Source of the DNA: Minisyncoccota bacterium
Lineage (GTDB): Bacteria; Patescibacteriota; Minisyncoccia; Phycocordibacterales; UBA1550
Direction: 5' to 3'
Length of the DNA: 64,000 nt
Assembly (NCBI GenBank): GCA_041660105.1
Contig: JBAZWZ010000004.1
Span: 176-64,175 of the forward strand
The notes below the pieces were generated by a model that was not told the origin of the DNA, ran no database searches, and saw nothing but the letters and a program-made list of their open reading frames with translations. Of this stretch, positions 4,909 to 49,275 are shown one piece after another. Each line of letters opens with the position of its first letter. Position 1 is the first letter of the stretch. The translations under genes were made by a program, and so were the position numbers.

Positions 4909-5550
4909 TTATTCCTTGGCTGGAATCTCTTCCTCTTCCTTCTTACCCTTCTTCTCTACTTCTATTGATGAGAGATCCATCACTGGGGCCTCTTCCACTT
5001 CTTCCTTCGCAACTGCGATAGCAGCGACAACATCAGAACCGTGAGTTACGAGGGTAACACCCTTTGGAAGTACAATACTCTCTGCAAGAATCTGACTATC
5101 AAGAGCTGTGAGTGAGGCGATATCAATAATAAAACTATGAGGAATATTTGCAGGCTCTGCCTTAACTTCGATTTCGTGAAGCACCTTTACAAGTGAGCCA
5201 CCAAGATCCTTTACTGCACCTGATACTCCCGTAAACTCGAGAGGTACGTGAACAGAAACAGTCTGACCTTTCTCAACAGTGTAGAAGTCAACGTGAATAG
5301 GAAATCCCTTCACAGGATCAACCTGCACTTCAGTGATGAGTGCGTTTACCTTACCCTTTGGCATCTCAACAACAACAACAGATGACTCACCTGCAGCCTT
5401 CCAAACCTTAATAAATTCATTCAATGCAAATACGCATGGTGTTGCCTCCTGATTGTGTCCGTAAAACACAGCGGGAATAAAACCCTCTGCGCGAATAGCC
5501 GAAAGCTTCTTCTTTGGGTCACGAATTTCTCCTTTTAATGTGATAGTCAT
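4909..5550 (-). CDS. rplY: 50S ribosomal protein L25 / general stress protein Ctc
   Basis: MTITLKGEIRDPKKK... matches the L25/Ctc N-terminus; beta-barrel plus C-terminal acidic tail. Start placed at the internal ATG (5550) rather than the track start. Confidence 0.8.
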   Translation of the reverse strand: MTITLKGEIRDPKKKLSAIRAEGFIPAVFYGHNQEATPCVFALNEFIKVWKAAGESSVVVVEMPKGKVNALITEVQVDPVKGFPIHVDFYTVEKGQTVSVHVPLEFTGVSGAVKDLGGSLVKVLHEIEVKAEPANIPHSFIIDIASLTALDSQILAESIVLPKGVTLVTHGSDVVAAIAVAKEEVEEAPVMDLSSIEVEKKGKKEEEEIPAKE

Positions 5551-5607
5551 AGTGGGGCTAGTATACATAAATAAGATGAAAAAGGCAAGCAAAGCAATAG
5601 AATATAG

Positions 5608-5643
5608 ACCAAAAACAAAACCCGCCGAATAAACGGCGGGGTT
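5608..5643 (-). terminator. Rho-independent terminator after the 5646..6113 gene
   Basis: Stem CCCGCCG/CGGCGGG with loop AATAAA, followed on the minus strand by UUUUGUUUUUGG. Confidence 0.55.
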
Positions 5644-5645
5644 GA

Positions 5646-6113
5646 CTACAACATTGATTTCTTCATTTTATCCATCGAGCCCAGCAGGCCATTCAAATAT
5701 GACACACTGAACTCTCGAGATTCTTTCTCATCTCTCAACGCTTTATCAAGTTGCCAGTTCAGTTGCAAATCAAGTTTCGGATGATCAACAAGGAGATTTT
5801 CTCTCGTGGAAAAATGGAAAAGAAGTAAATCCGCTTGTTTTTTCCATTGCATTTTCCCACCACATGAACAAATTATTCTTATGCTCACAAACTCTCCAGT
5901 GGGAGCTCGGTGAGGAGAAACAACAATTACTTCAATATGATTTGTTACTGCCTCAGGAATCGTTTTGTACCACTTGAACAAATAATTGCTTATTTCTTGG
6001 CAGTGGTCAACTGAAATCATAAAACCCATGTTTGAATCACCAGAAAATGGTCCCTGGTTAATTGTCAATTTTAATGGCATTTTCAAACCCTTCTGGGGCA
6101 CAGCCCCTTTCAT
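5646..6113 (-). CDS. Hypothetical protein
   Basis: 155-aa ORF in a co-directional gene string. No recognisable motifs. Start may be the MPLK ATG at ~6080. Confidence 0.4.
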   Translation of the reverse strand: MKGAVPQKGLKMPLKLTINQGPFSGDSNMGFMISVDHCQEISNYLFKWYKTIPEAVTNHIEVIVVSPHRAPTGEFVSIRIICSCGGKMQWKKQADLLLFHFSTRENLLVDHPKLDLQLNWQLDKALRDEKESREFSVSYLNGLLGSMDKMKKSML

Positions 6114-14433: not shown

Positions 14434-15861
14434 TTACTTCAGCGCTTCTCCAAAAAGCGCTTTGAGTGCTTCAGGGTTTGCAGAACCCTTGCTGGCTTTC
14501 ATTCCTTGCCCTACGAAGAACTGAATGAGGGCGACTTTGCCTGCTTTATAATCCTTAACGACATTTGGATTTGCAGAGAGAATTTCTGCGACTATTTTCT
14601 CAAGTGCTCCGTTATCATTATTTTGGATATATTTTTTTGCCACCTCTACTAAATCACCTCCTTGTGTAAAAATCTCACACAAAGAATCCTTTGCTCCACG
14701 AGACGAGAGTTCGCTAGCCATTATTCTAGTTACTAGCGCCATCATTCCCTCAGGGGTAATATTATTAAATCCATCGAGGCCATATTTTGCAACTAGACCA
14801 GCAATGTCGGAACAAATATAGTTTGCCAAAAGTCGAACTGCTTCTCCGTCTTTACTATGTGTAACCTCAAATTCATCCAGTTTGATAGTTTTATCAAAAA
14901 GTTCACCGTATCGCTTGTCGGCGACCAGTATCCCCACTTGTTCTGGGGCAATTCTAAAAGATAGGAGACGCTCACGCTTCTCCCAAGGGAGTTCGGGCAT
15001 TGTCGCCTTGAGTGCCTCATTTGAAAATTCAGGAATTTCTGAAATCTTGAGCTTTGGTAAATCTGGATCAGGGAAATAGCGGTAGTCGTGTGCTGACTCC
15101 TTCTTGCGCTGTGAATATGTCGCTTGCTTACCTTCATCCCATCCACGCGTCTCTTGCACTATCTCACCAGGGCCACCGTCGAGGATCGCTGTCATGCGTG
15201 CAACCTCGTACGCAATAGCACGCTCCACTGAACGGAACGAGTTCAAGTTTTTCACTTCCACTTTCGTACCGAGTTTATCTGTCTTTGATATTGAAATATT
15301 TGCCTCCACACGCATCTCTCCTTTCTCCATGTTTGCATCTGACACACCGAGTGTGCGGAGGAGGAGCTGGAGCTCACGAGCAAATGCGCCCGCCTCCTCT
15401 GCAGTGTGAATCACGGGCTTAGTCACGAGCTCCATGAGAGGCACGCCCGCGCGGTTGTAGTCAACGAGACTTGCGCTTCCTCCTTCGTGTGATGAGCTCG
15501 CAGTATCTTCCTCGAGATGCACACGCTCAATAGCGACGCCGTGGAGCTGTCCGTTTGATACAAGCGGATATTTGTACTGACTGATTTGATAGCCCTTCGG
15601 AATATCAGGATAGAAATAGTTCTTACGGTCAAACTCCGTGAAGTCTGCGAGGTCCGAGCCGAGCGCTGTCCCCACACGGAGTACGTGATGCACCGCCTGC
15701 TTGTTGATCACCGGCAAAGTCCCCGGGTGCGCCATGCAGACAGGGCAAATATTCACATTCGGCTCAGAATTGAACGGGTCGTTCGCCGAATTGCAGAACA
15801 TCTTTGTTTTTGTCTTGAGCTCAGCGTGAACCTCGAGCCCTACCGTAAGTTTGTAACTCAT
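14434..15861 (-). CDS. gatB: Asp-tRNA(Asn)/Glu-tRNA(Gln) amidotransferase subunit B
   Basis: 475 aa; VGLEVHAEL N-terminus; C-terminal YqeY-like tail. Confidence 0.95.
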   Translation of the reverse strand: MSYKLTVGLEVHAELKTKTKMFCNSANDPFNSEPNVNICPVCMAHPGTLPVINKQAVHHVLRVGTALGSDLADFTEFDRKNYFYPDIPKGYQISQYKYPLVSNGQLHGVAIERVHLEEDTASSSHEGGSASLVDYNRAGVPLMELVTKPVIHTAEEAGAFARELQLLLRTLGVSDANMEKGEMRVEANISISKTDKLGTKVEVKNLNSFRSVERAIAYEVARMTAILDGGPGEIVQETRGWDEGKQATYSQRKKESAHDYRYFPDPDLPKLKISEIPEFSNEALKATMPELPWEKRERLLSFRIAPEQVGILVADKRYGELFDKTIKLDEFEVTHSKDGEAVRLLANYICSDIAGLVAKYGLDGFNNITPEGMMALVTRIMASELSSRGAKDSLCEIFTQGGDLVEVAKKYIQNNDNGALEKIVAEILSANPNVVKDYKAGKVALIQFFVGQGMKASKGSANPEALKALFGEALK

Positions 15862-24620: not shown

Positions 24621-25277
24621 TTATTTTGTTAACCCCCACCCCTCATGAAAGAGTTCGCGCTCTTTTTTAAATACCACTTCTGCAATATGGAAAATAGTAT
24701 ACGTAATGAAGAATGCCGAAAGAACATCAATCGTGTAGTGCAAGTGTCCAAGAAGTGAGGTCACACCAAAAACAATTGACCACAAGACAAAAAGAAGGCG
24801 CAACCACTTCTCCTTCCAAAAGACGAGCGCCATCAAAAACGGGATCCCTGTGTGCCCCGAGAAAAAAAGATCTCCACCAAAAATAAATTTACTCGAGAAT
24901 GTTCCGAGGTCGAGGATAGTTTGAGACGGGAACGGCCCAATATGCGTAAGGGAAATAAAGAGCGCACGTGTGAGAATGAAAAGCGTCAAACTATGAAGCG
25001 TAAATGGAATATACTTCGGCTGAACAACAAGGAGTGATGTAACAACAATAATGAGAAAGAAAGGTCCATACACAAAGACAGTATCCACATTAAAAACAGG
25101 GATATTACTTAGGATGATATCCGTAACAGCGTTACTAGCTTGCTCTGTCGCATAGGTACCCGCATAATAATTCACAATCAGGCTCACAAAAAGAGCAAAG
25201 ATGGCGACGATGCTTGAGTATCGAAAAATAGGGTCAGCAGTAAATATCGAATACCTTTCTTTAAATGTTTTAAGCAT
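24621..25277 (-). CDS. PAP2_C / sphingomyelin-synthase-like integral membrane phosphotransferase
   Basis: GGDLFFSGHTG (CGDxxxSGHT-type) and HLHYTIDVLSAFFITYTIFH (HYTxDVxxxY...) motifs, six TM helices. Confidence 0.6.
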   Translation of the reverse strand: MLKTFKERYSIFTADPIFRYSSIVAIFALFVSLIVNYYAGTYATEQASNAVTDIILSNIPVFNVDTVFVYGPFFLIIVVTSLLVVQPKYIPFTLHSLTLFILTRALFISLTHIGPFPSQTILDLGTFSSKFIFGGDLFFSGHTGIPFLMALVFWKEKWLRLLFVLWSIVFGVTSLLGHLHYTIDVLSAFFITYTIFHIAEVVFKKERELFHEGWGLTK

Positions 25278-27428: not shown

Positions 27429-28049
27429 CTACGCATTTGGATCGATGGCCCCAACATTTCTTTCTTCTTCAACGAGCCTCCTTCGCATATAAAATGCAAA
27501 GATATAATATCCAGAAATAGCGATCGTAAGAATACCGACCCCCATCAATGCGTTTGAAATAAAACTCGTTGCAGAATCAAATGCACCCCCGAGAAAATAC
27601 CCAAAGATAAAGAGTCCGCCATAATTTACGAGCGCAACGATGAGCGCAAGTCTGAAAAATCGTGCAAACGGCATCTTCACCATACCTGCAACAAAGAGAA
27701 ACGCATGCGCGACACCGTAGGAAAGCTTGCCGATAAACATCGTGCGGAGCCCTCGCGTGTCCCAGAGCTTTCGCACTGCGCCCAGATGATCGGGTGTTAC
27801 CTTGAGTAATGCGAGCATCTTGTTTGAAAACTTTGTCCCCTCAAAATGCTTTCCGAGGAAATAATACAGCGCATCCATAATGATGTCGCGAAAGATAAAT
27901 ATTGAAAATGCAAAGTAGGGATTAAAATACCCCATACTCGAAAGCGCCCCTGTGATGAACCCAATGATGGGACCCTCAATAAACGTCAGCGGAATGAGTA
28001 TCCAATATCGATAATCAAGAATAAGCGCTTGAATGTGATCAGGAGACAT
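27429..28049 (-). CDS. DedA-family (VTT domain) membrane protein
   Basis: LIPLTFIEGPIIGFITGAL consensus and multiple TM helices. This is a second DedA paralog in the window. Confidence 0.7.
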   Translation of the reverse strand: MSPDHIQALILDYRYWILIPLTFIEGPIIGFITGALSSMGYFNPYFAFSIFIFRDIIMDALYYFLGKHFEGTKFSNKMLALLKVTPDHLGAVRKLWDTRGLRTMFIGKLSYGVAHAFLFVAGMVKMPFARFFRLALIVALVNYGGLFIFGYFLGGAFDSATSFISNALMGVGILTIAISGYYIFAFYMRRRLVEEERNVGAIDPNA

Positions 28050-33797: not shown

Positions 33798-36700
33798 TTA
33801 TTCTCCAAACCTCACCTCTACCACATCCGTCTGAGTTATACCATTCACTGTCGTGGTAATAATGATATTTTCTTGAGCTGCTGTAGTGCCTTGTGGGAAG
33901 AACAACGAGAACTTCGTCTGCTTGCGGTCGTCACCATCACTATGCTCTTCCTCCTGAACCACATTGAGCATGGTGAAGTTTCCAGAGATATTGGTGGTAA
34001 ACGGTACATCCTTCTTGATTCCTGTGACTTTTACCGTAAGTTCTAGTGGTTGTCCTTTCTTGAGTTTCAAGACATCATCTGACTTAAGGAGGAGTGTAGT
34101 ACTGTGAGCGGTATCTTTATACTTGTACTGGAGTTGGGCAGTTTGTTGCTTGTCGTAGATATTAACCGTACTCGTTTGAGACGTTGTTTTATTGGCAACA
34201 GTATTAGTGATACTAAGCGTGATTTCGGCGTTTGCAAACTTGAGTTCTTTTTCAAGTTCGTTTCTTCTCTCGTTGTCTGACTCGTGGTCTCTTTTGTGTT
34301 TAATTGATTCTCTTTCCTTAGTGTTACCTTTTGTAGTAGTAAGGGTAAGAGTATATGTCTTAAGTTCTTTTGTGCTTTGTGGGAAGGAGATAGTAATCAC
34401 ACCGTTTGTGGTAGCAACCGTTGCTGGGACAGTAGCCTCATTACTATCTTTTACTGGAGAATTTCCTACGCGATAGTAAGTGTTGGAAAGATTTAAGGAA
34501 ACATTTCCTCTTCCAGCAACTGAGAATGGCAGATTAAATGAATCCTTTTCCCAGAGTGAATACTCGTCAGGAATAGTGAGATTTGCGAAGACAGTGGTAT
34601 CAAATGGCTTCACATCATCTTGATTTGGGACACCGTCTCCGTCGGGATCTGCCGTGGGACTCGAGTAGACAGTTACCGCAATACTTGAGGTTGCGATGTT
34701 ACCAGCCATATCATGCGCAGTTATCAATATGTTTGTAACCCCTGGGGCAAATGTTTGTGTTAGTGGTTTGTCTGTAGTGAATGTAGAATTAGGATCAATA
34801 CTATCATTAACAGTTACGGGAATAGTTAGAAGTGTACCACTCGAAGTAAGTTGCTCAACAGAGGTATCAGACGCAAAGATAGTTGGAGCGGTAGTATCGA
34901 TTTTGAAATCAAGTGTACTTGTTGCTTCTGTGTTCCCAAAGTAGTCGACTGAGTAATACTTGAGGGTACTAGTACCTTCGGTTGCAATGACGAGCGGGGT
35001 TGAAGTGCTGTAGGTGTTCCATGTAACTCCGTTATCAAGAGAGTACATTGTTTTTTCTACACCTACGCCGTCAATATTATCTACAGCGGTAAGAGCTACT
35101 GATGTTGGACTTGTGTACCAATAATCCACACCTAATGAACCCGAAATAACTGAGGTGGTCATTGGTGCAACTGTATCAGAGAAATTATTACCAACCTGAA
35201 TAGTTTGTTCAGGTGTGCCATCTCCATTTTCATCAACTAACACGGTTACTCCACGCTCTCCCCTTGAGAGCGCATCAGAGTCAACCTTGTAAGTATAGAT
35301 TTCTCCCAATTTAAGTGGGATATTTATTGCTGAAAAAATATTTGATACTGCTCCGTCAACATAAAACGAATACAGCCCTTCCTCAGTTCCTGATACCTTA
35401 TAAGACTCAGTTCCATTCGGGAAGTAAACTTCTGCTTGTTTTCCACTCTTCTGGTCGTAGTATACATTCGGTACATCGTTTTTTACTCCTGTAGTGTTTA
35501 GTCCAGAAGACCTCCCCTCTGAATCAACTATTTCAAGGGTACCTGGACTACAAATAGAAATTGTTTCTTTTTCCTGTGATGCTAGTTTTAATTTTTCTAT
35601 AAAATTATCAGGATTACTATAAGTATCAGAATTAGGGAAAATCGTCTTTATTGTTTCTAGTTTATTTGCAACCTGAGCGAGATAATAAGGCTGAGATTGA
35701 TTATTTAATCTGCGACAAACCTTGTTGCCATTTTCATCATAATACGGATCAGGCCCGAACCCATTGTATCCTCTAACCCCTAAGATTTGCTCCATTTCCG
35801 GTTTTGTAATCTTATAAGTTATGTTGTTTTCATCCAATTTGCCAGTCCAAGTTTCATTTTGTGCAACGTAAGGATTATTATAATAAATATTAAATTTGTC
35901 TCTCAAAACCTTCATACCATCTTTTACGTTAGAAAATATAGACTGTTTTGTATTTGTGTAAAACTTATACAAATATCCATCAGAAGCAGTTTTGTAGGAG
36001 TGAGGAATATTCTTATCTGAATCAGTATAACAGTCTAGATAATTTAAATTATCTAGAGAACATGCAGGCACATCAATACCGCTAGCCACTCCTCGCTTAT
36101 CATAGTCATTCTCTGGTTGTGCGGGGTAATGAGTAGTGGTAACTTGACTAATACCATGACCGAAATCCCTCGCTACATTTTCGTTATCAAAGTCAACAAT
36201 ATCAGACTCATTAGCAAAAATTGCTAAAATGAGCTGTTTTGGGAAATCAGCCAACCGCAAAAGAGAAATATTGTTTGCCCCCTCTTTCCCGAGATTATCA
36301 CTGCTACTAAGAGAAGGGGTTGCGCTTGCGTTTATATAATAATGGTTAACGGCATCAGAAATAAGGTTTGCTCGATCTTCCTTTGTCCCATAAATTTGTG
36401 ATGCTGTATTCTCTAATTCCGTCTGCATACTTGCCTCATACTTCAAATACTCCTGCCCATCGATAAAGTTTCCTGTTGCATTATCAATAACCCCAGCCTT
36501 CATCCAGCCTGTTGTGCCATCGGTCGCATCTCGAACTTGATACCATCGATATGCGATTCCGCCCTCTATAGTTTCAGCATTACTTCCATCTTTCTTTGTG
36601 CTCTTAACCTCAACCGCCCATCCACTAGGAAGCTGCTTTAATTCTGTCGAGGTCGTGTTTGGCAACTCATACATCTTCATAGCTCCCGATTCATTTGAGA

Positions 36701-37604
36701 TTTCTGCCCAAAAATGATCTGGAGTAGCACCACCCTGCGTAACCACCAAATCATCAAAGTAATCAAAGTGTCCCGTCCCCCAACCCCACGGACGGTCATA
36801 TACTTGCATTTGGTAATTGTCTGACACAGGAAGGGCGCCGACGTTTAATTCTGCTTGCTGCGTATCGTTTATTAAATATGTCAACAATCCTGTTGCTGGG
36901 TCATAGGTGAGGGATTCATCAAACCAAGTGTTCCATATTGCGGGAATAATATTACTAATATGTACTCCGCAATAAATACCATTTTGCCAATTTAATCCAT
37001 CATCAAGAAAAAAGCCATAACGAGAGCAGTATGTTCCGTTGTATCCGCTGTAGGAGTTGTTGGCATAATCAACACCAAAATGTTTATCAGGAACTCCGTC
37101 ACCATTGGTGTCAAAAAAGAGCCTGAGGAAGCCATTATAAAATTGGTTTCCAGCGTGCTGCATTGTACGACGACTGACAGTGATTGGATGCGTACCATTT
37201 ACTGGTATCCAGCGCGAAGCGAGGATACCTCCGTTGTCCGTGACGTCTGTACTTACATTCATTTCTCCATTTTGTTCTACGACTCCGTAACCGCTTGTTG
37301 TCCATTTGGTTGGATCAATAGTATTGTCATCAAAATCATCTGAGAAAATTGTATCTACAGAAAGAGAAGTTGAATTCAAAGAAAGCGACGAAAGTCGCAT
37401 TAGTGGGGCAAAAAATGAGGTGACTGCTGACTGAACAGTAGTCGGAGAGTCAGAAGGAGAAGTTGAGGAGGTCTCAACAAACTGCATTGTTGAGGTAGCG
37501 TCAATAGGAGCACTTGATGTTGCCGTTTCCGGCATAATAACCTGCGCAAATGAAACCTGCGGAAATACTAGTAGTAACCCGAGGAGCAAAATAACTTTTT
37601 TCAT
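33798..37604 (-). CDS. Giant (1268 aa) secreted multidomain surface protein: Ser/Thr-rich linker, lectin/LamG-like region, possible lysozyme-like region, Ig-like (Big/CHB_HEX_C-like) domain, HYR-like domain, TSP3-like Ca-binding DxDGDG motif
   Basis: Signal peptide MKKVILLLGLLLVFPQVSFA. A possible lysozyme-like region carries ESD...GISQV. An Ig-like domain carries YSLDNGVTWNTY...YYSVDYFGNTE. HYR-like domain TAPTIFASD...ITAHDMAGN. Calcium-binding motif DPDGDGVPNQDD. Confidence 0.75.
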   Translation of the reverse strand: MKKVILLLGLLLVFPQVSFAQVIMPETATSSAPIDATSTMQFVETSSTSPSDSPTTVQSAVTSFFAPLMRLSSLSLNSTSLSVDTIFSDDFDDNTIDPTKWTTSGYGVVEQNGEMNVSTDVTDNGGILASRWIPVNGTHPITVSRRTMQHAGNQFYNGFLRLFFDTNGDGVPDKHFGVDYANNSYSGYNGTYCSRYGFFLDDGLNWQNGIYCGVHISNIIPAIWNTWFDESLTYDPATGLLTYLINDTQQAELNVGALPVSDNYQMQVYDRPWGWGTGHFDYFDDLVVTQGGATPDHFWAEISNESGAMKMYELPNTTSTELKQLPSGWAVEVKSTKKDGSNAETIEGGIAYRWYQVRDATDGTTGWMKAGVIDNATGNFIDGQEYLKYEASMQTELENTASQIYGTKEDRANLISDAVNHYYINASATPSLSSSDNLGKEGANNISLLRLADFPKQLILAIFANESDIVDFDNENVARDFGHGISQVTTTHYPAQPENDYDKRGVASGIDVPACSLDNLNYLDCYTDSDKNIPHSYKTASDGYLYKFYTNTKQSIFSNVKDGMKVLRDKFNIYYNNPYVAQNETWTGKLDENNITYKITKPEMEQILGVRGYNGFGPDPYYDENGNKVCRRLNNQSQPYYLAQVANKLETIKTIFPNSDTYSNPDNFIEKLKLASQEKETISICSPGTLEIVDSEGRSSGLNTTGVKNDVPNVYYDQKSGKQAEVYFPNGTESYKVSGTEEGLYSFYVDGAVSNIFSAINIPLKLGEIYTYKVDSDALSRGERGVTVLVDENGDGTPEQTIQVGNNFSDTVAPMTTSVISGSLGVDYWYTSPTSVALTAVDNIDGVGVEKTMYSLDNGVTWNTYSTSTPLVIATEGTSTLKYYSVDYFGNTEATSTLDFKIDTTAPTIFASDTSVEQLTSSGTLLTIPVTVNDSIDPNSTFTTDKPLTQTFAPGVTNILITAHDMAGNIATSSIAVTVYSSPTADPDGDGVPNQDDVKPFDTTVFANLTIPDEYSLWEKDSFNLPFSVAGRGNVSLNLSNTYYRVGNSPVKDSNEATVPATVATTNGVITISFPQSTKELKTYTLTLTTTKGNTKERESIKHKRDHESDNERRNELEKELKFANAEITLSITNTVANKTTSQTSTVNIYDKQQTAQLQYKYKDTAHSTTLLLKSDDVLKLKKGQPLELTVKVTGIKKDVPFTTNISGNFTMLNVVQEEEHSDGDDRKQTKFSLFFPQGTTAAQENIIITTTVNGITQTDVVEVRFGE

Positions 37605-38034: not shown

Positions 38035-40113
38035 TTACACCTTAGGAGCTGGGTATTCCTTCAAAATTTTTACCGTTTCTGCATGCTTCCCATTTAACTC
38101 CAATACCTGCAAGTAGAATTTCTTTGCTTCAGGATACTCTGGGGCCAATTCAAATGCACGCTTGAATATCTCTTCTGCTTTTGCGGTATTCTTATTACCA
38201 TAATGAGCATTTCCAAGCTCAAAAAGAATTGATTGCTTCGTAGGTGAAAGTTCCGCTGCTTTATTCAAGTAAACGAGCGACTCATCATACTTTCCTACTT
38301 TTGAAAGGAACGAGCCGGCGAAAAGCTGTGCACGTGCATCAGAGGGGTGCTCAGCCGCTTGTTTTTCAAGTTCACTTTTTGTAAGGAGGAGGAACTGTTG
38401 CTGGATGTCTGATATTCCTTTTGATGAATCAAACGCAGTAGTTGAGAAAGGAGTAAGCTGCTCACGAATCTCGGTCTCCCCCATCGAGTCGTAGGCAAGC
38501 GCATCTTTGAAGAAGGCGAGGTTACGGGCAAGTGATGGATCCGTACGATCGGTCAAACCTTTTATAAATGTAATGTTCTGCATAAACGGACTGTAGTTCA
38601 CGTTATAGAGAAGAACGATTGCAAAAATGAAAGCTCCACCAGAAACCATAAACGTAAGGTCTTCTTTTTCTGCTGCATCCTTTTTAATATTTTTTGATTT
38701 ATTCTCTGCGTTTCTGTCAGTTGTCTGCGAAGCAGTGTCAGTTGTCAGTTGTCCCCTGTTCATTCCCTCAACATACGCAAGTATCATTCCGAAGTAAATA
38801 AGACTCGTGATGTTGTCAAACACAAAAAGATTCTGGAAAAAGTAGCCGCCCAGAAGCCCAGTAAGTACGCTTTTTTCTAAGACACTCAGCTCATCCGTGC
38901 GCCCCGTTAGAGACGGAGCCACGCTGCGACCACTCGCGGTCTCTAACGGGGCAGGTCTCCAAATGTAATAAAGAGACAATCCAAAGAGCGATAAATATCC
39001 GAGCAGCCCGAGCGCACCTCCCGCAACAAGCCAATCAAAGACTACGTTGTGCGCGCGGTCAAACCATTGCTCCTGCGCGTACATATTTGGATCATAGTAC
39101 TTACTGAAAACATACATAAAGTTATCCATTCCCCACCCAAGAATAGGTTTTTCCTTGAACCCTTCATACGCCATACCCCACACCATGAGGCGTGCGTGAC
39201 CTGTGCCTTCTGTTGGAGAGATAGCAGCGAGGCGTGAAAGCACGGGGCTTTGCTGTATGAACGATGCATCGCGAATAGCGATAAATCCACCGACAAAAAG
39301 AATTATCGCAATCACAATACCGATTGCACTTTTTCTAATCAACTTATTATTTTTCTCAAAAATGGCGACAAGAAGTGTAGCGAGACCAAGCCCAGCAATG
39401 AGCCCAAGGATCGCTCCACGCGTACCTGAGTGATATAGCGCAAACGTCTGAAGGATAATTATTAAACCATAGATTACCATACGTATATTCCCACCCGTAG
39501 TGTCTAGCTTTTCACGCACTAAAAGAAACAAAGCAATAAAAATATTAAAGAGCGCGTAGGTACCAAGATACTCAGTGTTACCAAGTGTACCATCAATACG
39601 AATGCCTCCTTGGGAAATTTTGACGTGGCCAGCCCATTGCATCACTCCGATGATTGCCATAATGACTCCCGCAAAAAGATTGAAATTCAAATAAGGTCGC
39701 CAAAATCCGCGCACGGTGAGCACTGTTGATGCCACCACAAAATAAGCGAATAGATGAAAGTAGGTGACCACTCCTTCCATACGCTCGTAGTTGGACCAGA
39801 AACTTTTTGCGGGATCTGCTCCAAAAATAGATGCAAGGGTGATGATACCAACAAATGCTGCAAAAGCGTAAAGAAGATAACTTTTCTTTGGACGATATGC
39901 AGGATCAATTACCGCAAGGACAATCCATGCTGAAAACATTATTTCGACAAGAGCGCGAAACGCAAAATTCTTACCTGTAATAAATGGGAAAAACGTACTC
40001 TGTCCAAGAACAATAAACGGAATAAATGGCACCGCCACGAACCCCGCAAAAACAACCGCATTGGCAAAAAATTTATGTAAATTCATCCCGTTAGAAGTAG
40101 GAAATGCGAACAT
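38035..40113 (-). CDS. O-antigen-ligase-like (Wzy_C) polytopic membrane protein with C-terminal TPR repeats; candidate O-oligosaccharyltransferase
   Basis: More than 10 TM helices with a Wzy_C-like core, then C-terminal TPR units (AKAEEIFKRAFELAPEYPEAKKFYLQVLEL). The true start is probably MNLHKFF (~40086), from comparison with the homologous PMM leader. Confidence 0.75.
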   Translation of the reverse strand: MFAFPTSNGMNLHKFFANAVVFAGFVAVPFIPFIVLGQSTFFPFITGKNFAFRALVEIMFSAWIVLAVIDPAYRPKKSYLLYAFAAFVGIITLASIFGADPAKSFWSNYERMEGVVTYFHLFAYFVVASTVLTVRGFWRPYLNFNLFAGVIMAIIGVMQWAGHVKISQGGIRIDGTLGNTEYLGTYALFNIFIALFLLVREKLDTTGGNIRMVIYGLIIILQTFALYHSGTRGAILGLIAGLGLATLLVAIFEKNNKLIRKSAIGIVIAIILFVGGFIAIRDASFIQQSPVLSRLAAISPTEGTGHARLMVWGMAYEGFKEKPILGWGMDNFMYVFSKYYDPNMYAQEQWFDRAHNVVFDWLVAGGALGLLGYLSLFGLSLYYIWRPAPLETASGRSVAPSLTGRTDELSVLEKSVLTGLLGGYFFQNLFVFDNITSLIYFGMILAYVEGMNRGQLTTDTASQTTDRNAENKSKNIKKDAAEKEDLTFMVSGGAFIFAIVLLYNVNYSPFMQNITFIKGLTDRTDPSLARNLAFFKDALAYDSMGETEIREQLTPFSTTAFDSSKGISDIQQQFLLLTKSELEKQAAEHPSDARAQLFAGSFLSKVGKYDESLVYLNKAAELSPTKQSILFELGNAHYGNKNTAKAEEIFKRAFELAPEYPEAKKFYLQVLELNGKHAETVKILKEYPAPKV
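38901..38950. repeat. 13-bp inverted repeat CCCCGTTAGAGAC...GTCTCTAACGGGG (28-nt spacer) inserted in-frame inside the Wzy_C/TPR CDS
   Basis: Shares the core with the CCCGTTAGAGGT elements at 40082..40210 and 41081..41208. Encodes the loop peptide APLETASGRSVAPSLTG. Confidence 0.5.
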
Positions 40114-40210
40114 TTCCGTAGTTAGTTAATGATTATTAATAATTTCTATACTATACCGATATTTTCCATTTGTCTCAAGTCAAAACTTTGGGACCTCGAA
40201 CGGGATTCAT
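40082..40210. repeat. Inverted-repeat element E1: 14-17-bp terminal inverted repeats ATCCCGTTAGA(A/G)GT bracketing ~95 nt and containing the 5' end/start codon of the Wzy_C/TPR gene
   Basis: Left ~60 nt near-identical to E2, including the hairpin GGAAATG-TTCG-CATTTCC. Right end GACCTCGAACGGGATTCAT is the inverted copy of the left end. Confidence 0.55.
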
Positions 40211-40220
40211 AATGTCTAAA

Positions 40221-40335
40221 AGTATACCCCCACATCTACTTTTTTCCTAGTGTTTTACGCAATCTTTATAAAGCGCAACACTGAGCACTAGACCCCGAGC
40301 CCAATCTAAATAATACAAAAGTAGGTGCAGGGGTA
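40221..40335. other. Imperfect ~22-bp inverted repeat (AAGTATACCCCCACATCTACTTTT / AAAAGTAGGTGCAGGGGTATAT) enclosing ~65 nt, immediately downstream of the PMM gene
   Basis: Read directly. Followed on the minus strand by UUUU, so it could be a large terminator or a small structured RNA. Confidence 0.3.
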
Positions 40336-40355
40336 TATCATACTTAAGCTCAATG

Positions 40356-41084
40356 TTAAGAACTTAGCTCACCAATGAACAAACAGACTGCATCCTCACA
40401 CTCTTTGGGAGTGTCTATAGAATATGTAGGGATTACACCTACCACACTATGATCATTCCCTCCCTCAAACAGCGCATCGCCGACATAAACACATTCATCA
40501 CTTCGCCACCCCATCTGATCTATAAAATATTTCACATTGTCGCCTTTATTGCGCGCAGTGAAATCAACACACGTGGTGCCACCAATACGTGCCTGCACGC
40601 CGAGATTCTTCAACTGAGAAATTTCTGGTTCAAAACGACAGAGAAGACCCTTCCGAATCCCCCTATCTTGATCTGCTTTCTCTTTTTCTTCAAGTGGTGC
40701 GTTGTGCCCAATCAATGAATACGATATCTGACACTTTCTGTCTTCAACCAAGTCTTTTAGATTACTAATTTCGAGACCAGCGTGATCAATCATTTTATCA
40801 ACAAGCCTAAAAATCTCATTTTTCTGAATTTCCGTTAGCTCATTACGCCAAATGATTTCACCTGATTGCGCTTCTGCATGATTTCCGTTTTGCGCCATTA
40901 TCACAACTTCTTTTGCAATTTCCCCAATCTGTTTTATTATTTGATCTTTTGTGGCACCAGACACAACGACCACATCACCACCATTTTCTTTGAGACCCAG
41001 CAAACATGCAACCATCGAATCACTTATTTCACTACGCGAGCGAGTAAGTGTCCCATCCATATCAAAAAAGAAATGTTTTTTCAT
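40356..41084 (-). CDS. Eukaryote/archaeal-type phosphomannomutase (HAD-IIB PMM family)
   Basis: FDMDGTLT HAD motif I, GGNDHS (cf. eukaryotic PMM GGNDHE), 242 aa, and end-to-end colinearity with eukaryotic PMM2-type enzymes. Confidence 0.75.
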   Translation of the reverse strand: MKKHFFFDMDGTLTRSRSEISDSMVACLLGLKENGGDVVVVSGATKDQIIKQIGEIAKEVVIMAQNGNHAEAQSGEIIWRNELTEIQKNEIFRLVDKMIDHAGLEISNLKDLVEDRKCQISYSLIGHNAPLEEKEKADQDRGIRKGLLCRFEPEISQLKNLGVQARIGGTTCVDFTARNKGDNVKYFIDQMGWRSDECVYVGDALFEGGNDHSVVGVIPTYSIDTPKECEDAVCLFIGELSS

Positions 41085-41208
41085 CCCGTTAGAGGTAGGA
41101 AACGCTGCGCGTTTCCGTAATTAGTTAATAATTAGTAAGACTTCGACACATCACTTTATAATACCCGCAAGTCCAGAATATAACTGTATGACCTCTAACG
41201 GGATTCAT
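41081..41208. repeat. Inverted-repeat element E2 filling the whole manC-PMM intergenic space; termini TTCATCCCGTTAGAGGT / ACCTCTAACGGGATTCAT; the left end abuts the PMM start codon
   Basis: The left ~60 nt is homologous to E1, with a covarying hairpin GGAAACGC-GCA-GCGTTTCC. The 14-bp termini are perfectly complementary. Confidence 0.55.
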
Positions 41209-41212
41209 TGTT

Positions 41213-42670
41213 TTAGTTTCTTCCATGTTTATCTTCGTAACGCACGATGTCATCCTCTCCGAGATACATACCGCTCTGTACTTCAATAATCTCGAGAATT
41301 TCATTCGTTGGATTTTCAAGACGGTGCACGGTTTCAACAGGGATATCTACCGTTTGATGAGCACTATAAAGAAGTGTGTTTTCGCCGACGGTCGCCTTTG
41401 CGGTACCTTGTATCACGACCCAGTGCTCAGAACGTTTGTGGTGGAGCTGGAGGCTCAGCTGCTCGTGCGGGCTCACCATAATCTTTTTCACCTTATACCC
41501 AAGGCCTTCTTCAAGTACCGTATATGAGCCCCAGGGACGAATCACCGTCTTGTGTTCCTTGTATTGCATCTTGTTGCGCTCCTTGAGCTCTGCGTACGCA
41601 TTTTTAATTTTGTGCGTCTCATCCTTGTGAACCACGAGGACTGCGTCTTCTGTATCCACCACAACGATTCCTGTTATGCCAATAGCGACTGTTGCTCGTT
41701 TTGAATTGCCATATACGAGAGAATTTTCACAATCAATCGTGAGTGCGTGTTCATTGAGAACATTGCCACACTCATCTTTTTCGAGGAGCTCATAGAGTGA
41801 CTTCCACGAACCGATATCCTTCCATCCAAAATCAACTTTAATAACTTCCACTTCCCTACTTCTCTCAAGGAGACCGACATCGATAGACACAGGAGACAAC
41901 ACCGAGAAATGTTCGATAAACTTTTCAGCATCTGCATCTCTGAGAGACACCGCGTGAGCAACTTCGGGTAAATATTTTTGAATTTCTTCATTAAACGTTT
42001 TCGCACTCCACACAAAAATTCCCGCGTTCCAAAGATACCCCTCTTTGATATACTTTTCAGCAATGTCACGTGGTGGCTTCTCAACGAAACATTCGACTGG
42101 TGTGGGGACGTTATCAATCATTTCTCCCACTGGCTTGATGTAGCCATACTCAGTGCTAGGACTATCTGGCGTGATACCAAGCGTAATAAGCTTTCCTTCT
42201 TTTGCGCGCGTAAATGCATCAATCACGCTTTTCTTAAAAGCACTGTCATCTGTGATCAAATGATCCGCGGGGGAAACGAGCATCAAAGCATCCTTGTCCT
42301 TCCTCTCAATAACATCTGCGGCGAGCGCGAGTGCTGGGGCAGTATTCTTTTGTGCAGGCTCAATAATGAGCTGTTCACGAGTAAAACCGTAATCCTTGAG
42401 TTGTAGCAAGATGTCAGTTGAAAATTGCTTGTTCGTGACAATGTAAATATTTTCTTTGGGGACTATATTCTCTATGCGCAAAAAAGTAGCTTGAATAAGA
42501 GTCTTATCCCCTGTGAGTGCGAGAAGTTGCTTCGGGTACAGCTCACGACTAATAGGCCAGAGTCGTGTACCTGATCCACCTGCGAGAATTACAGCGTAAT
42601 GATGATTATTTGATTGCTCCTTCATACTATTTCTAACTTTGTTGTTTTCATCGTACCACAGTTTAGGCAC
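41213..42670 (-). CDS. manC: Bifunctional mannose-1-phosphate guanylyltransferase / mannose-6-phosphate isomerase (type II PMI-GMP)
   Basis: [14 protein letters not shown] nucleotidyltransferase motif and a C-terminal cupin PMI domain. The track start is GTG, so the likely real start is the [12 protein letters not shown] about 45 nt downstream. Confidence 0.9.
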
Positions 42671-47559: not shown

Positions 47560-48309
47560 TTACTTTTTAACAAACCAGAAACAGCCGCAGCCGTAAATCT
47601 GTTTATCTGCAATTTCTTTTGTCGCGTCATATATCATACCAGTTTCTAAGGCATTATCTGGAATAAGCGAAAACTCTTTAAGAATGAGCTCTGGAAACAT
47701 TCCAATAACCATCTCATACGAGTATACACGATGTGCATTAAATTGAATTCTTGGAACACCCACAGGCACAACAAAAAGGAGATTACCACTCTTTGCAATA
47801 ACGCGAGAAAGTTCTTTAGCTGCAACCAAATCCCCTTCTGGGTCTATTTCGTCACCATAGCGACCAAGTCCCACATGCTCAACGGTATGCATACAAGAAA
47901 GAGAAGTTATTGAATCATTCTCAAAAGGCAAACTTAATAGATTCGCAGGTTTCGATATCAAATTCGATAAATTTAATTTAGCTGGTCGAAAATCATAAAA
48001 ACGAACTGTTTTAAATGCTGATACAATACCAGAAAAATACAAACTAGAAGAAATATCCACATGCTCCTTTGCGTCTATCTCTTTAACTTTTCGCGCAGCC
48101 CATGCAGTGTGATAAATATAATGAGTATCAAATCTTGTATAAGGTATATTTTCAAAAAGACACGGGAAAATGTCTAGAATAGAAATTTTAAACCTTTTTT
48201 GCTTATCTTTTGCCTTAAAAGAAACAAAGCTTCTAATGATGAGAGGAAGGAACAAGAATGATCTTATTGTAAAAACAAATCTTTTAACCCCGCGCAAGAA
48301 ATTAAACAT
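47560..48309 (-). CDS. Putative SAM-dependent methyltransferase (DUF268-like)
   Basis: Weak resemblance (SLSCMHTVEHVGLGRYGDEIDPEGDLVAAKELSRV) to the DUF268 putative methyltransferase family found in polysaccharide loci. Confidence 0.4.
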   Translation of the reverse strand: MFNFLRGVKRFVFTIRSFLFLPLIIRSFVSFKAKDKQKRFKISILDIFPCLFENIPYTRFDTHYIYHTAWAARKVKEIDAKEHVDISSSLYFSGIVSAFKTVRFYDFRPAKLNLSNLISKPANLLSLPFENDSITSLSCMHTVEHVGLGRYGDEIDPEGDLVAAKELSRVIAKSGNLLFVVPVGVPRIQFNAHRVYSYEMVIGMFPELILKEFSLIPDNALETGMIYDATKEIADKQIYGCGCFWFVKK

Positions 48310-48339: not shown

Positions 48340-49275
48340 TTATTCTTTTGCTGGTTGTCCTTTAATAAACAACTCGGCTTGCTTTTGGTTTTCTGGGTGG
48401 ACAAAAAGTAGATTATCATATCGATAGCTTTCCTTATATTCATGCTTTTGCAAATATCCATCATTATCTATTTCATATCCAATATATCCATATTTTTTTA
48501 GGATTTCAATCGATTCCGTACAGTTTTTTGCCCACTCTTCATCTCCTCCCATCTCCAAAGTAACCAGAGGTTTAATATCTGTAAGGATATGCTGCATTGA
48601 TTGCAATATGAGATGTTCGGCCCCCTCTGCGTCTATTTTAATAAAGGTTGGTGAAACACCTTTATCTCTACAATAAGTATCGAGCGAAATCGCCTTGACC
48701 TTGATGCGATTAGCATCATCTAAAAACTTCATCTCTTCACTTGTTCGTGCTTTAAATGTGTTGAAAGCACTATACTTTGGTCCATAATCCACGAATTCTA
48801 TTTCAGTCTCCTTGTTTAGGACAGCATTATTATTTACCGTAATATTGCTTTTTTTTGATGCGTTTTCCTTTAGACTCTCAAATGTGCGCGGTGTTGGCTC
48901 AAAGCTATGCACCTGACCACTAGATTCAACAAGAGTGCTTGCAAGAATAGAGTAATAACCTACATGAGCTCCAACATCAAAAAATACATCTCCTTTTCTA
49001 AGGAAATTAATTAAAAAATTGGTAAGGTTTGCCTCCAGGAAACCATAGTAATAAATAGCGCTCCCCTCTGGCAAGTAAAACCTCATTGTATCTCCCCAGA
49101 GTGTCTTGTGGGTCACCTTAAAGGGGTGCAGATACGCAAAGCTTTGCAATATATAAAATGGGATTGTTCGTATTGGGTCTTTCAAAAGCCTCCTCATTCT
49201 ATGAGGCTGCAGCTTATAGAGCTCATATCTCTTGAGAACCATTTTTTTTAGATCTGCTCGTTGTTTTTCGTCCAT
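48340..49275 (-). CDS. FkbM-family methyltransferase
   Basis: FFDVGAHVGYYS...FEPTP...IKIDAEGAE motifs of Methyltransf_21/FkbM. Confidence 0.8.
   Translation of the reverse strand: MDEKQRADLKKMVLKRYELYKLQPHRMRRLLKDPIRTIPFYILQSFAYLHPFKVTHKTLWGDTMRFYLPEGSAIYYYGFLEANLTNFLINFLRKGDVFFDVGAHVGYYSILASTLVESSGQVHSFEPTPRTFESLKENASKKSNITVNNNAVLNKETEIEFVDYGPKYSAFNTFKARTSEEMKFLDDANRIKVKAISLDTYCRDKGVSPTFIKIDAEGAEHLILQSMQHILTDIKPLVTLEMGGDEEWAKNCTESIEILKKYGYIGYEIDNDGYLQKHEYKESYRYDNLLFVHPENQKQAELFIKGQPAKE

Follow-up and report, generated by a model that had tools for sequence, protein, structure and literature searches.

The DNA analysed here is a stretch of 64,000 nucleotides from a Minisyncoccota bacterium (contig JBAZWZ010000004.1 of assembly GCA_041660105.1, positions 176 to 64,175), hereafter called the window. 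Its minus strand carries, in this order, the genes for ManC (GMP/PMI, 41213-42670), a HAD-IIB/PMM-like hydrolase (40356-41084) and a Wzy_C/TPR protein (38035-40086), and gmd, a NUDIX gene and an epimerase gene lie divergently from them on the plus strand; Pfam and NCBIfam searches agree with these assignments. The HAD and Wzy genes each start at the end of a leader unit bounded by inverted arms (units 2 and 1, respectively; Table 1). We argue below that both units are very probably copies of a non-autonomous mobile DNA insertion, a miniature inverted-repeat transposable element (MITE), belonging to a new family that inserts at start codons and rebuilds them.

The arms of unit 2 (ATCCCGTTAGAGGT and ACCTCTAACGGGAT, 14 nt, at 41191-41204 and 41083-41096) are 100% complementary and those of unit 1 (40193-40206 and 40085-40098) are 86% complementary, with one C.T mismatch and one G.T; 94 nt lie between the arms in both cases. 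Thus, the inverted arms that a first-pass annotation had reported for the two units are present in both. One figure is corrected: the upstream, old ATG and the present one are 124 nt apart in each unit. Its other structural descriptions stand: the proximal ~60 nt are common to the two units (81-84%), their centres show no similarity, and the pseudo-start ATGAATCCCGTT is found in both. The distal ~27 nt are also shared (85%). The 12-mer core of the arms, CCCGTTAGAGGT, has nine matches in the window with up to two mismatches, where 2.5 are expected, and nine were reached in none of 100 shuffles.

Empty Sites in Related Organisms

The HAD protein has close homologues at 71-75% identity, and the contigs that encode them keep the gene order of the window. 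We compared the syntenic loci of three related organisms (L120/L121, L122/L123/L127 and L124-L126), and both units are missing from these loci, revealing a presence/absence polymorphism at orthologous sites. The ManC-HAD spacer spans 3-33 nt in the relatives (20 nt in L120/L121, 3 nt in L122/L123) versus 128 nt in the window, and the HAD-Wzy spacer spans about 35 nt in L120 and L122 versus 269 nt in the window.

The junctions can be aligned to the nucleotide. At the Wzy gene, the empty site reads ACATT ATGAAT TTACA in L120 and L122, and the window reads ACATT ATGAAT [CCCG...118 nt...CGGG] ATGAAT TTACA. At the HAD gene, the empty site of L120 reads GGA ATGAAA AAACATTTC, and the window reads AACA ATGAAT [CCCG...CGGG] ATGAAA AAACATTTC. 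A single model fits both window junctions with zero mismatches: an element of the form T-CCCG...CGGG-A inserted after the A of a start codon, with a 4-bp duplication, TGAA. Under this model, the A of each present start codon is derived from the element and the old ATG has become a pseudo-start, and the open reading frame (ORF) stays intact because the duplicated TGAA and the terminal A of the element (G in some subfamilies) re-create ATGAA directly after it. As read from these alignments, the comparison shows that the lineage of the window gained one element at positions +2 to +5 of the HAD-IIB/PMM-like ORF and another one at the same position of the Wzy ORF.

The relatives also settle where the Wzy protein begins. 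Automatic gene calls start it at an ATG within the hairpin of unit 1 (40113), yielding a product of 692 aa with a spurious, element-encoded N-terminal extension of nine codons, but orthologues begin MNLHKF or MNIHKF at the ATG at 40086, which is thus the true start.

Table 1. Features of the two start-codon units, the third family member and candidate promoter elements in the window. TIR, terminal inverted repeat.
Feature	Position	Strand	Remark
Unit 2, complete element	41084..41203	minus	120 nt, 13-bp TIR to 13-bp TIR; at start of HAD-IIB/PMM-like gene, between ManC and HAD
Unit 2 old start-codon A (41208) and distal TGAA copy (41204-41207)	41204..41208	minus	with the T of the TIR forms the pseudo-start ATGAAT
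Unit 2 distal TIR, T-CCCGTTAGAGGT	41191..41203	minus	from arm comparison
Unit 2 subterminal hairpin, GGAAACGC-GCA-GCGTTTCC	41098..41116	minus	one nt from proximal TIR
Unit 2 proximal TIR, ACCTCTAACGGG-A	41084..41096	minus	last base, 41084, is the A of the HAD start codon
Unit 2 proximal TGAA copy	41080..41083	minus	bases 2-5 of HAD ORF
Unit 1, complete element	40086..40205	minus	120 nt; at start of Wzy_C/TPR gene
Unit 1 old start-codon A (40210) and distal TGAA copy (40206-40209)	40206..40210	minus	from junction alignment
Unit 1 distal TIR, T-CCCGTTCGAGGT	40193..40205	minus	from arm comparison
Unit 1 subterminal hairpin, GGAAATG-TTCG-CATTTCC	40100..40117	minus	one nt from proximal TIR; contains ATG at 40113
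Unit 1 proximal TIR, ACTTCTAACGGG-A	40086..40098	minus	base 40086 is the A of the true Wzy start codon
Unit 1 proximal TGAA copy	40082..40085	minus	bases 2-5 of Wzy ORF
Third family member, mini-element, arms C-CCCGTTAGAGAC / GTCTCTAACGGG-G	38902..38955	minus	24 nt between arms; 54-nt in-frame insertion in Wzy ORF
Native Wzy -10 box, TATACT	40221..40226	minus	10 nt upstream of old ATG; aligns with TGGTATACT in L120 and L122
Candidate internal sigma-70-like promoter, TTGAGA-17-TATAGT	40150..40178	minus	10/12; inside unit 1, pointing at Wzy

A Family Dispersed in Patescibacteria

Further copies were sought in one genome per species with the pattern CCCGTTNGAGGT-N80-110-ACNTCTAACGGG, for which about two chance matches are expected. 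The scan listed at least 118 stretches from at least 78 assemblies (with up to six stretches per assembly among the matches listed), from which we extracted 137 arm pairs; all family counts below rest on these matches. Most of the assemblies are metagenome-assembled genomes (MAGs) labelled Paceibacterota/Parcubacteria (including Kaiser-, Lloyd-, Yonath-, Yanofsky-, Jorgensen- and Nomurabacteria, and Minisyncoccia), "Saccharibacteria" or Patescibacteria, and a few are labelled Planctomycetota, Omnitrophica or Gammaproteobacteria. No copy was found in viral contigs, leaving carriage by phages unsupported. Arms occur almost exclusively as convergent pairs, most of them 80-110 nt apart (a range partly set by the search pattern) with a peak at 90-99 nt, and the copies share no conserved ORF. 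Solo arms in the loci are truncated copies or chance matches, for example at position 2627 of L113, where a proximal arm abuts another gene start.

In terms of form, the element is about 120 nt long, with 13-bp terminal inverted repeats (TIRs), Y-CCCGTTAGAGGT ... ACCTCTAACGGG-R, and a 4-bp target-site duplication. It thus combines the features of a MITE: it is small and non-coding, it has TIRs and a target duplication, orthologous sites are empty in relatives, and many copies are dispersed among genomes. The first-pass annotation had mentioned a MITE-like mobile leader as one possibility and had proposed counting further copies; both the empty sites with their duplications and the copies in at least 78 assemblies bear this possibility out. 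The arms would then be transposon ends, that is, protein-binding sites for a putative transposase supplied in trans.

Target-site duplication is visible across the family. The two flanks agree at positions 2-5 in ~77-87% of the copies and less often at positions 1 and 6. The excess of identical flanking 4-mers is found both for copies off start codons (28 of 43, versus 4.4 expected and a maximum of 11 in 2000 shuffles) and for those at start codons (70 of 94, versus 47.3 expected and a shuffle maximum of 56). The duplicated 4-mers include TGAA, TTGA, TCAA, TTCA, TTTA, CATA, CTTA, TAAA, TGGA and others, and mostly fit T-N-N-A approximately. Copies off start codons often lie in the TTGA of TTGACA-like -35 boxes, which the duplication rebuilds.

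The element ends vary in a coordinated manner. The base just outside the 12-mer core pairs across the element, as T:A in 101 copies and as C:G in 35, with one mismatch among the 137. When the distal terminal base of a gene-start copy is C, the gene begins with GTG (7/7), as the insertion model predicts. Compensated double changes are also seen at inner arm positions (GAAGT/ACTTC, GAGAT/ATCTC and GAGGC/GCCTC), and uncompensated changes are as often G.T (4-5) as A.C (4), which gives no RNA-strand bias. Finally, a subterminal (C/A)GTT(A/T) or CCGT(A/T) follows the left arm in 28 of 94 copies versus 5 of 94 in a control window.

Position, Polarity and the Subterminal Hairpin

In 94 of the 137 pairs, a start codon that opens an ORF of at least 60 codons abuts one of the two arms, and never both. 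The gene-proximal half of these copies consists of an AT-rich stretch, a TAC motif, a hairpin of 6-9 bp, one T and then the TIR. The hairpin adjoins the gene-proximal arm in 58 gene-start copies and the distal arm in only two, and we argue from this strict orientation that the gene-proximal half is functional. The sequence of the hairpin stem varies widely (GGAAAT, GGACAC, GGATGC, GGTCGTC, GGAAGC, GGACGCC and others). The hairpin covariation seen by the first-pass annotation between the two units extends to 42 hand-picked members, in which the five basal pairs are formed in 99.5% of cases and each shows two-sided changes, a result matched by none of 500 shuffles. Predicted stability is alike on both strands (-9.6 kcal/mol sense versus -9.3 kcal/mol antisense).

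The downstream genes are diverse. Their proteins (n=92) match 118 different Pfam families, and the products include FtsW/RodA, solute-binding proteins, glycosyltransferases, IF-3, GluRS, MurG, Mur ligases, SecE and SHMT. Thus, the element is not tied to glycan genes.

Two groups of copies depart from the common layout. A subfamily located off start codons (L034, L041, L053, L057, L023, L075 and L087) has different interiors, GGCGAAGCC-type hairpins and GTTGAC on both flanks, and several of these GTTGAC-flanked copies are in MAGs labelled Planctomycetota or Omnitrophica. In L003, L011, L016, L068 and L100 (one Lloydbacteria MAG) and in CAYHFD01 loci, the inverted repeat reaches about 25 nt (e.g. 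GGT-CGCGGACCC ... GGGTTCGCG-TCCT-ACC), so that alternative structures become possible, in which the 3' half of the hairpin is paired with either its local partner or the distal end.

Tandem or nested copies with one common flanking repeat occur in L077 (~5454-5686), L041 (~5978-6102), L075, L031 and L113 (4073-4393), where they form ACCTCTAACGGG-N6-CCCGTTAGAGGT palindromes resembling the 12-6-12 core sites of recombinases. Integration by a tyrosine recombinase was considered, as tandem copies share a single 6-bp spacer, and was dropped because the terminal base behaves like a repeat position and the core that is duplicated measures 4 bp.

Transcription and Translation of Genes Behind the Element

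The other genes of the window give an idea of the expression signals into which the element inserts. Only four of 54 have a Shine-Dalgarno-like 4-mer, and in 10 of 54 a good -10 box ends 4-12 nt before the start codon, a proximity that marks mRNAs as leaderless or nearly so. Many window genes have an extended -10 box (TGnTAnnnT) 5-10 nt before the ATG, e.g. 14434-15861, 24621-25277, 27429-28049, 47560-48309 and 48340-49275. The same proximity is found at the old start codons of the family: among the 94 copies, -10 boxes are most frequent 6-8 nt before the old (distal) ATG, and 38 boxes end 4-12 nt upstream of it. In compact, Shine-Dalgarno-poor and partly leaderless genomes, most of the insertions that survive would be those that rebuild a start codon, and survival in one orientation only would likely be due to the gene-proximal half keeping the gene expressed.

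Transcripts could reach the genes of the window by two routes. The native -10 box of Wzy lies upstream of the distal arm of unit 1, and unit 2 sits inside the ManC-HAD operon; transcripts from native signals should therefore carry the whole element, and the long-range stem suggested by the first-pass annotation, which depends on transcription starting upstream of the distal arm, is in keeping with these positions. Folded from the old ATG, the predicted RNA has -46.4 kcal/mol (z -6.55) for unit 2 and -28.9 kcal/mol (z -2.0) for unit 1, and both folds are closed by the stem between the arms, with the A and U of the real AUG in paired positions. In these models, it is possible that a 14-bp arm stem masks the AUG in transcripts with both arms. 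Such a read-through stem may lower expression or give rise to a processing site, as is known from Correia elements.

The other, and most likely, route would be an outward promoter ~63-75 nt upstream of the ATG, the leader then starting upstream of the hairpin and lacking the distal arm; transcripts from such an internal promoter would leave the AUG unpaired. Besides the candidate in unit 1 (Table 1), unit 2 has a TATTAT 73 nt before the ATG, and the -10-like boxes of the two units are thus at comparable distances from the ATG (63-75 nt). Family-wide, TGnTAnnnT, the extended -10 motif, is counted 29 times on the sense strand versus 15 times on the antisense strand, with a cluster 70-79 nt before the ATG. 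These motifs hint at an outward internal promoter.

A third feature concerns translation. One frame of the proximal arm contains a TAA (CTC TAA CGGG ATG), and in another frame an overlapping ATGA arises from the duplication. An ATG-initiated ORF ends at the proximal-arm TAA in 63 of the 94 copies, and in 24 of the 94 an uninterrupted upstream ORF (uORF) runs from the old ATG (MNPVRG...SYL*). The distance between the old and new ATGs is 1 mod 3 in 21 of these 24 copies, versus 48, 27 and 19 copies with 1, 2 and 0 mod 3 overall. This phase suggests termination-reinitiation via the uORF in a subset of copies, bearing in mind that related copies are not independent. As a general mechanism, uORF coupling was rejected for the copies of the window, both of which have internal stops despite their 124-nt spacing; it is a feature of a subfamily only.

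Weighing the Mobile-Element Interpretation

Several observations weigh against a simple MITE interpretation. First, neither the window (where the check covered the top 25 listed families) nor 118 loci of 8 kb (905 kb) yielded an autonomous element or a transposase with matching ends, and no long arm pair was seen to enclose an ORF in these 905 kb; MAGs often lose insertion sequence copies, and mobilisation is deduced from its footprints. Secondly, one of the empty sites may not be entirely empty. The ManC-HAD spacer of L120 (3981-4000) reads TCTAAATTTAACGGAATGAA, and 12 of its last 14 bases (TTTAACGGAATGAA) agree with the proximal-arm end TCTAACGGGATGAA; the site may be what is left of an older copy that has decayed, or one that the element prefers as a target. 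The HAD sites of L122 and L124 are clean, with no resemblance to the proximal arm. A metagenome scan for empty Wzy sites in the same species recovered only L127 (P0004 organism), a relative that was already known. Thirdly, as the family was collected with exact arms, arm conservation is overstated. Fourthly, a generic sigma-70 scan of the elements is uninformative, scoring equally on both strands (56 versus 55 of 94), and a position-weight view upstream of the hairpin displays a conserved TAC-GG and AT-richness, with no clean TAnnnT -10 box, which leaves the internal promoter tentative. Finally, interior identity is only ~0.70 within genomes and ~0.60 between them, implying that most insertions are old; that ends, hairpin and length have been kept in old copies points to a retained function beyond what the MITE label alone conveys.

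Such a function is central to a further reading, in which the family goes beyond selfish DNA and is a mobile, start-codon-rebuilding leader co-opted genome-wide by Patescibacteria, turning leaderless genes into leadered ones through insertion at +2 to +5 and acting as a portable module for translation initiation and regulation in organisms where Shine-Dalgarno initiation is largely lacking. The TIR stem and the conserved hairpin would then determine expression, together with the uORF in many copies (it begins at the old AUG and ends at the proximal-TIR UAA, which precedes the new AUG by 4 nt), and a regulator derived from a transposase might use the TIRs as operators. We regard co-option on this scale as rather unlikely.

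A related proposal, compatible with a MITE origin, is that of a domesticated element whose arms, about 106 bp apart centre to centre (~10 helical turns), are operators through which a host protein, possibly derived from a transposase, loops DNA and co-regulates dozens of genes. The peak of arm spacing at 90-99 nt, the DNA-symmetric variation of the arms and the conservation of arms, hairpin and length while interiors drift to ~70% within a genome all fit this proposal. However, no candidate protein was identified, the spacing range is partly imposed by the search pattern, and conserved ends are equally what a transposase needs, so that we hold such a regulatory network to be improbable.

The short palindromic units, the strand-polar hairpin and the strict orientation recall REPIN-like elements, i.e. 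paired repetitive extragenic palindromes (REPs) mobilised by RAYT, a Y1 transposase of the IS200/IS605 type acting on single-stranded hairpin DNA, and a Y1_Tnp gene is indeed present near the orthologous locus of L120. This is the sole Y1_Tnp gene seen, though, and there are no arms beside it in L120-L126; moreover, REPIN and IS200/IS605 mobility leaves no target duplication, in contrast to the 4-bp duplication seen here, and in place of a short spacer, ~94 nt of variable sequence lie between the arms. A REPIN origin is thus very improbable.

The first-pass annotation had also offered another explanation, a riboregulatory switch shared by the surface-glycan pathway. This would be a conserved cis-regulatory RNA that serves the surface-glycan genes as a thermosensor, riboswitch or RNase III switch and whose long stem evolved to sequester the AUG. 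The stable predicted folds with a paired AUG, the covarying hairpin and the location of both window units before glycan-pathway genes are what such an RNA would produce. Nevertheless, the units are missing from the orthologous ManC-HAD-Wzy locus in three relatives, family members precede unrelated housekeeping genes (the 118 Pfam families mentioned above), and copies at glycan genes have neither a specific central sequence in common nor conservation resembling a ligand pocket. RNA-strand asymmetry is also lacking, as the arms show no excess of G.U over A.C and the hairpin is equally stable on both strands. In addition, target duplications are not expected for an evolved leader, and no credible Rfam family was detected, either in the whole window at gathering thresholds or at 39900-41400 in E-value mode. 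Pathway-specific regulation by such an RNA is largely refuted, and we give the hypothesis hardly any credence. An invertible promoter, with the repeats as crossover sites at which a site-specific recombinase flips the enclosed ~94 bp (phase variation), is just as implausible: the repeats do flank an AT-rich, promoter-like segment before surface-polysaccharide genes, and the palindromes of tandem copies do resemble recombinase core sites, but the orientation is near-invariant across assemblies (58 versus 2), direct 4-bp duplications and empty sites denote insertion and not inversion, and most copies precede non-surface genes.

Other Insertions and Neighbouring Features

The window contains a third copy of the family, a mini-element that adds 18 aa (PAPLETASGRSVAPSLTG) to the Wzy protein, these residues being absent from three orthologues; a clean 4-bp duplication is not visible at this copy (38902-38955).

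A second, unrelated MITE-like insertion of about 115 nt (40223-40337, minus strand) lies between the HAD stop codon and unit 1 and is absent from the empty loci. Its arms (TATACCCCTGCACCTACTTTT and AAAAGTAGATGTGGGGGTATA, 21 nt) are 86% complementary, its predicted RNA fold has -42.5 kcal/mol (z -3.5), and it is inserted inside the native TGGTATACT -10 box of Wzy, with a flanking TATAC repeat; related copies are present in L019 (6800-6904) and L069 (178-280). Three copies of the start-codon family and one member of this second family are thus found within 2.3 kb of the glycan locus. Their co-occurrence is a matter of insertion history, not of pathway regulation.

Just downstream of Wzy, a 1268-aa protein (33798-37604, minus strand) has an OmpL47-type beta-barrel domain and a weak SH3_3 match as its sole domain matches. 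Logan contig SRR18595301_541284 (L001), an independent assembly of the same organism, begins at the first base of the distal core CCCGTTAGAGGT of unit 2, suggesting that assemblies break at the element or that the population is heterogeneous at this site.

Significance and Comparison with Known Systems

Searches for the motif and for MITEs in Patescibacteria returned no description of this family in the searchable literature, and a 2024 review of prokaryotic MITEs includes none from Patescibacteria (PMC10969869). The family, which is common in Patescibacteria, is thus apparently undescribed. These bacteria have tiny, gene-dense genomes, and little has been described of their mobile DNA. A family found in at least 78 species-level assemblies would be useful for tracking genome dynamics. 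In practice it is also troublesome, since it shifts start-codon calls (as in the 692-aa Wzy call) and apparently breaks assemblies. Its unusual trait is that most copies sit exactly on start codons and in one orientation, the last base of the element completing a new ATG or GTG. This links transposon insertion to a leaderless, Shine-Dalgarno-poor gene organisation, and provides a testable case of a gene surviving separation from its promoter.

Among known systems, insertion sequences with outward promoters (ISEcp1, IS1380 family) have ends that begin with CC and generate 4-5-bp duplications. The present family resembles them in the orientation-dependent activation of a downstream gene that it may provide, in its ends beginning with (Y)CCC and in its 4-bp duplication, a likeness that we offer as a lead only. 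Unlike it, they are autonomous, ~1.6 kb long and transposase-encoding, and no such partner was found here.

Enterobacterial repetitive intergenic consensus sequences (ERIC, or intergenic repeat units, IRU) and similar enterobacterial repeats are imperfect palindromes in transcribed intergenic regions, with orientation-dependent effects on mRNA stability (PMC10969869). Unlike the present family, ERIC sequences have no fixed relation to start codons, and both sequence and taxon differ. Rickettsia palindromic elements (RPEs) insert in-frame into protein-coding genes and lengthen the protein by a peptide segment but do not destroy it (PMC10969869). A comparable case is the 54-nt mini-copy in Wzy, a palindrome inserted in-frame that adds a peptide segment. 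However, RPEs are ~150 bp long and unrelated in sequence, and the in-frame form is a minority here, the main form being located at start codons, outside the mature ORF.

Closest in behaviour are the Correia elements of Neisseria, which have TIRs of 26 bp and a TA target duplication. The family differs from them in its 13-bp TIRs, its 4-bp duplication (TNNA) and its host, Patescibacteria instead of Neisseria, and there is no sequence relationship. To our knowledge, insertion within the first codons, with the last base of the element rebuilding the start codon, has not been described for Correia elements. Nonetheless, both are non-coding elements of ~100-155 nt with TIRs, a target duplication and many dispersed copies, and in both the repeats can form a long stem in mRNA. 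Correia elements (CREE/nemis) are mostly located immediately upstream of genes, with which they are co-transcribed, and supply promoters and RNase III substrates (PMC2649163, PMC10969869). The start-codon family of Patescibacteria is thus a counterpart of Correia elements, not one of their members.

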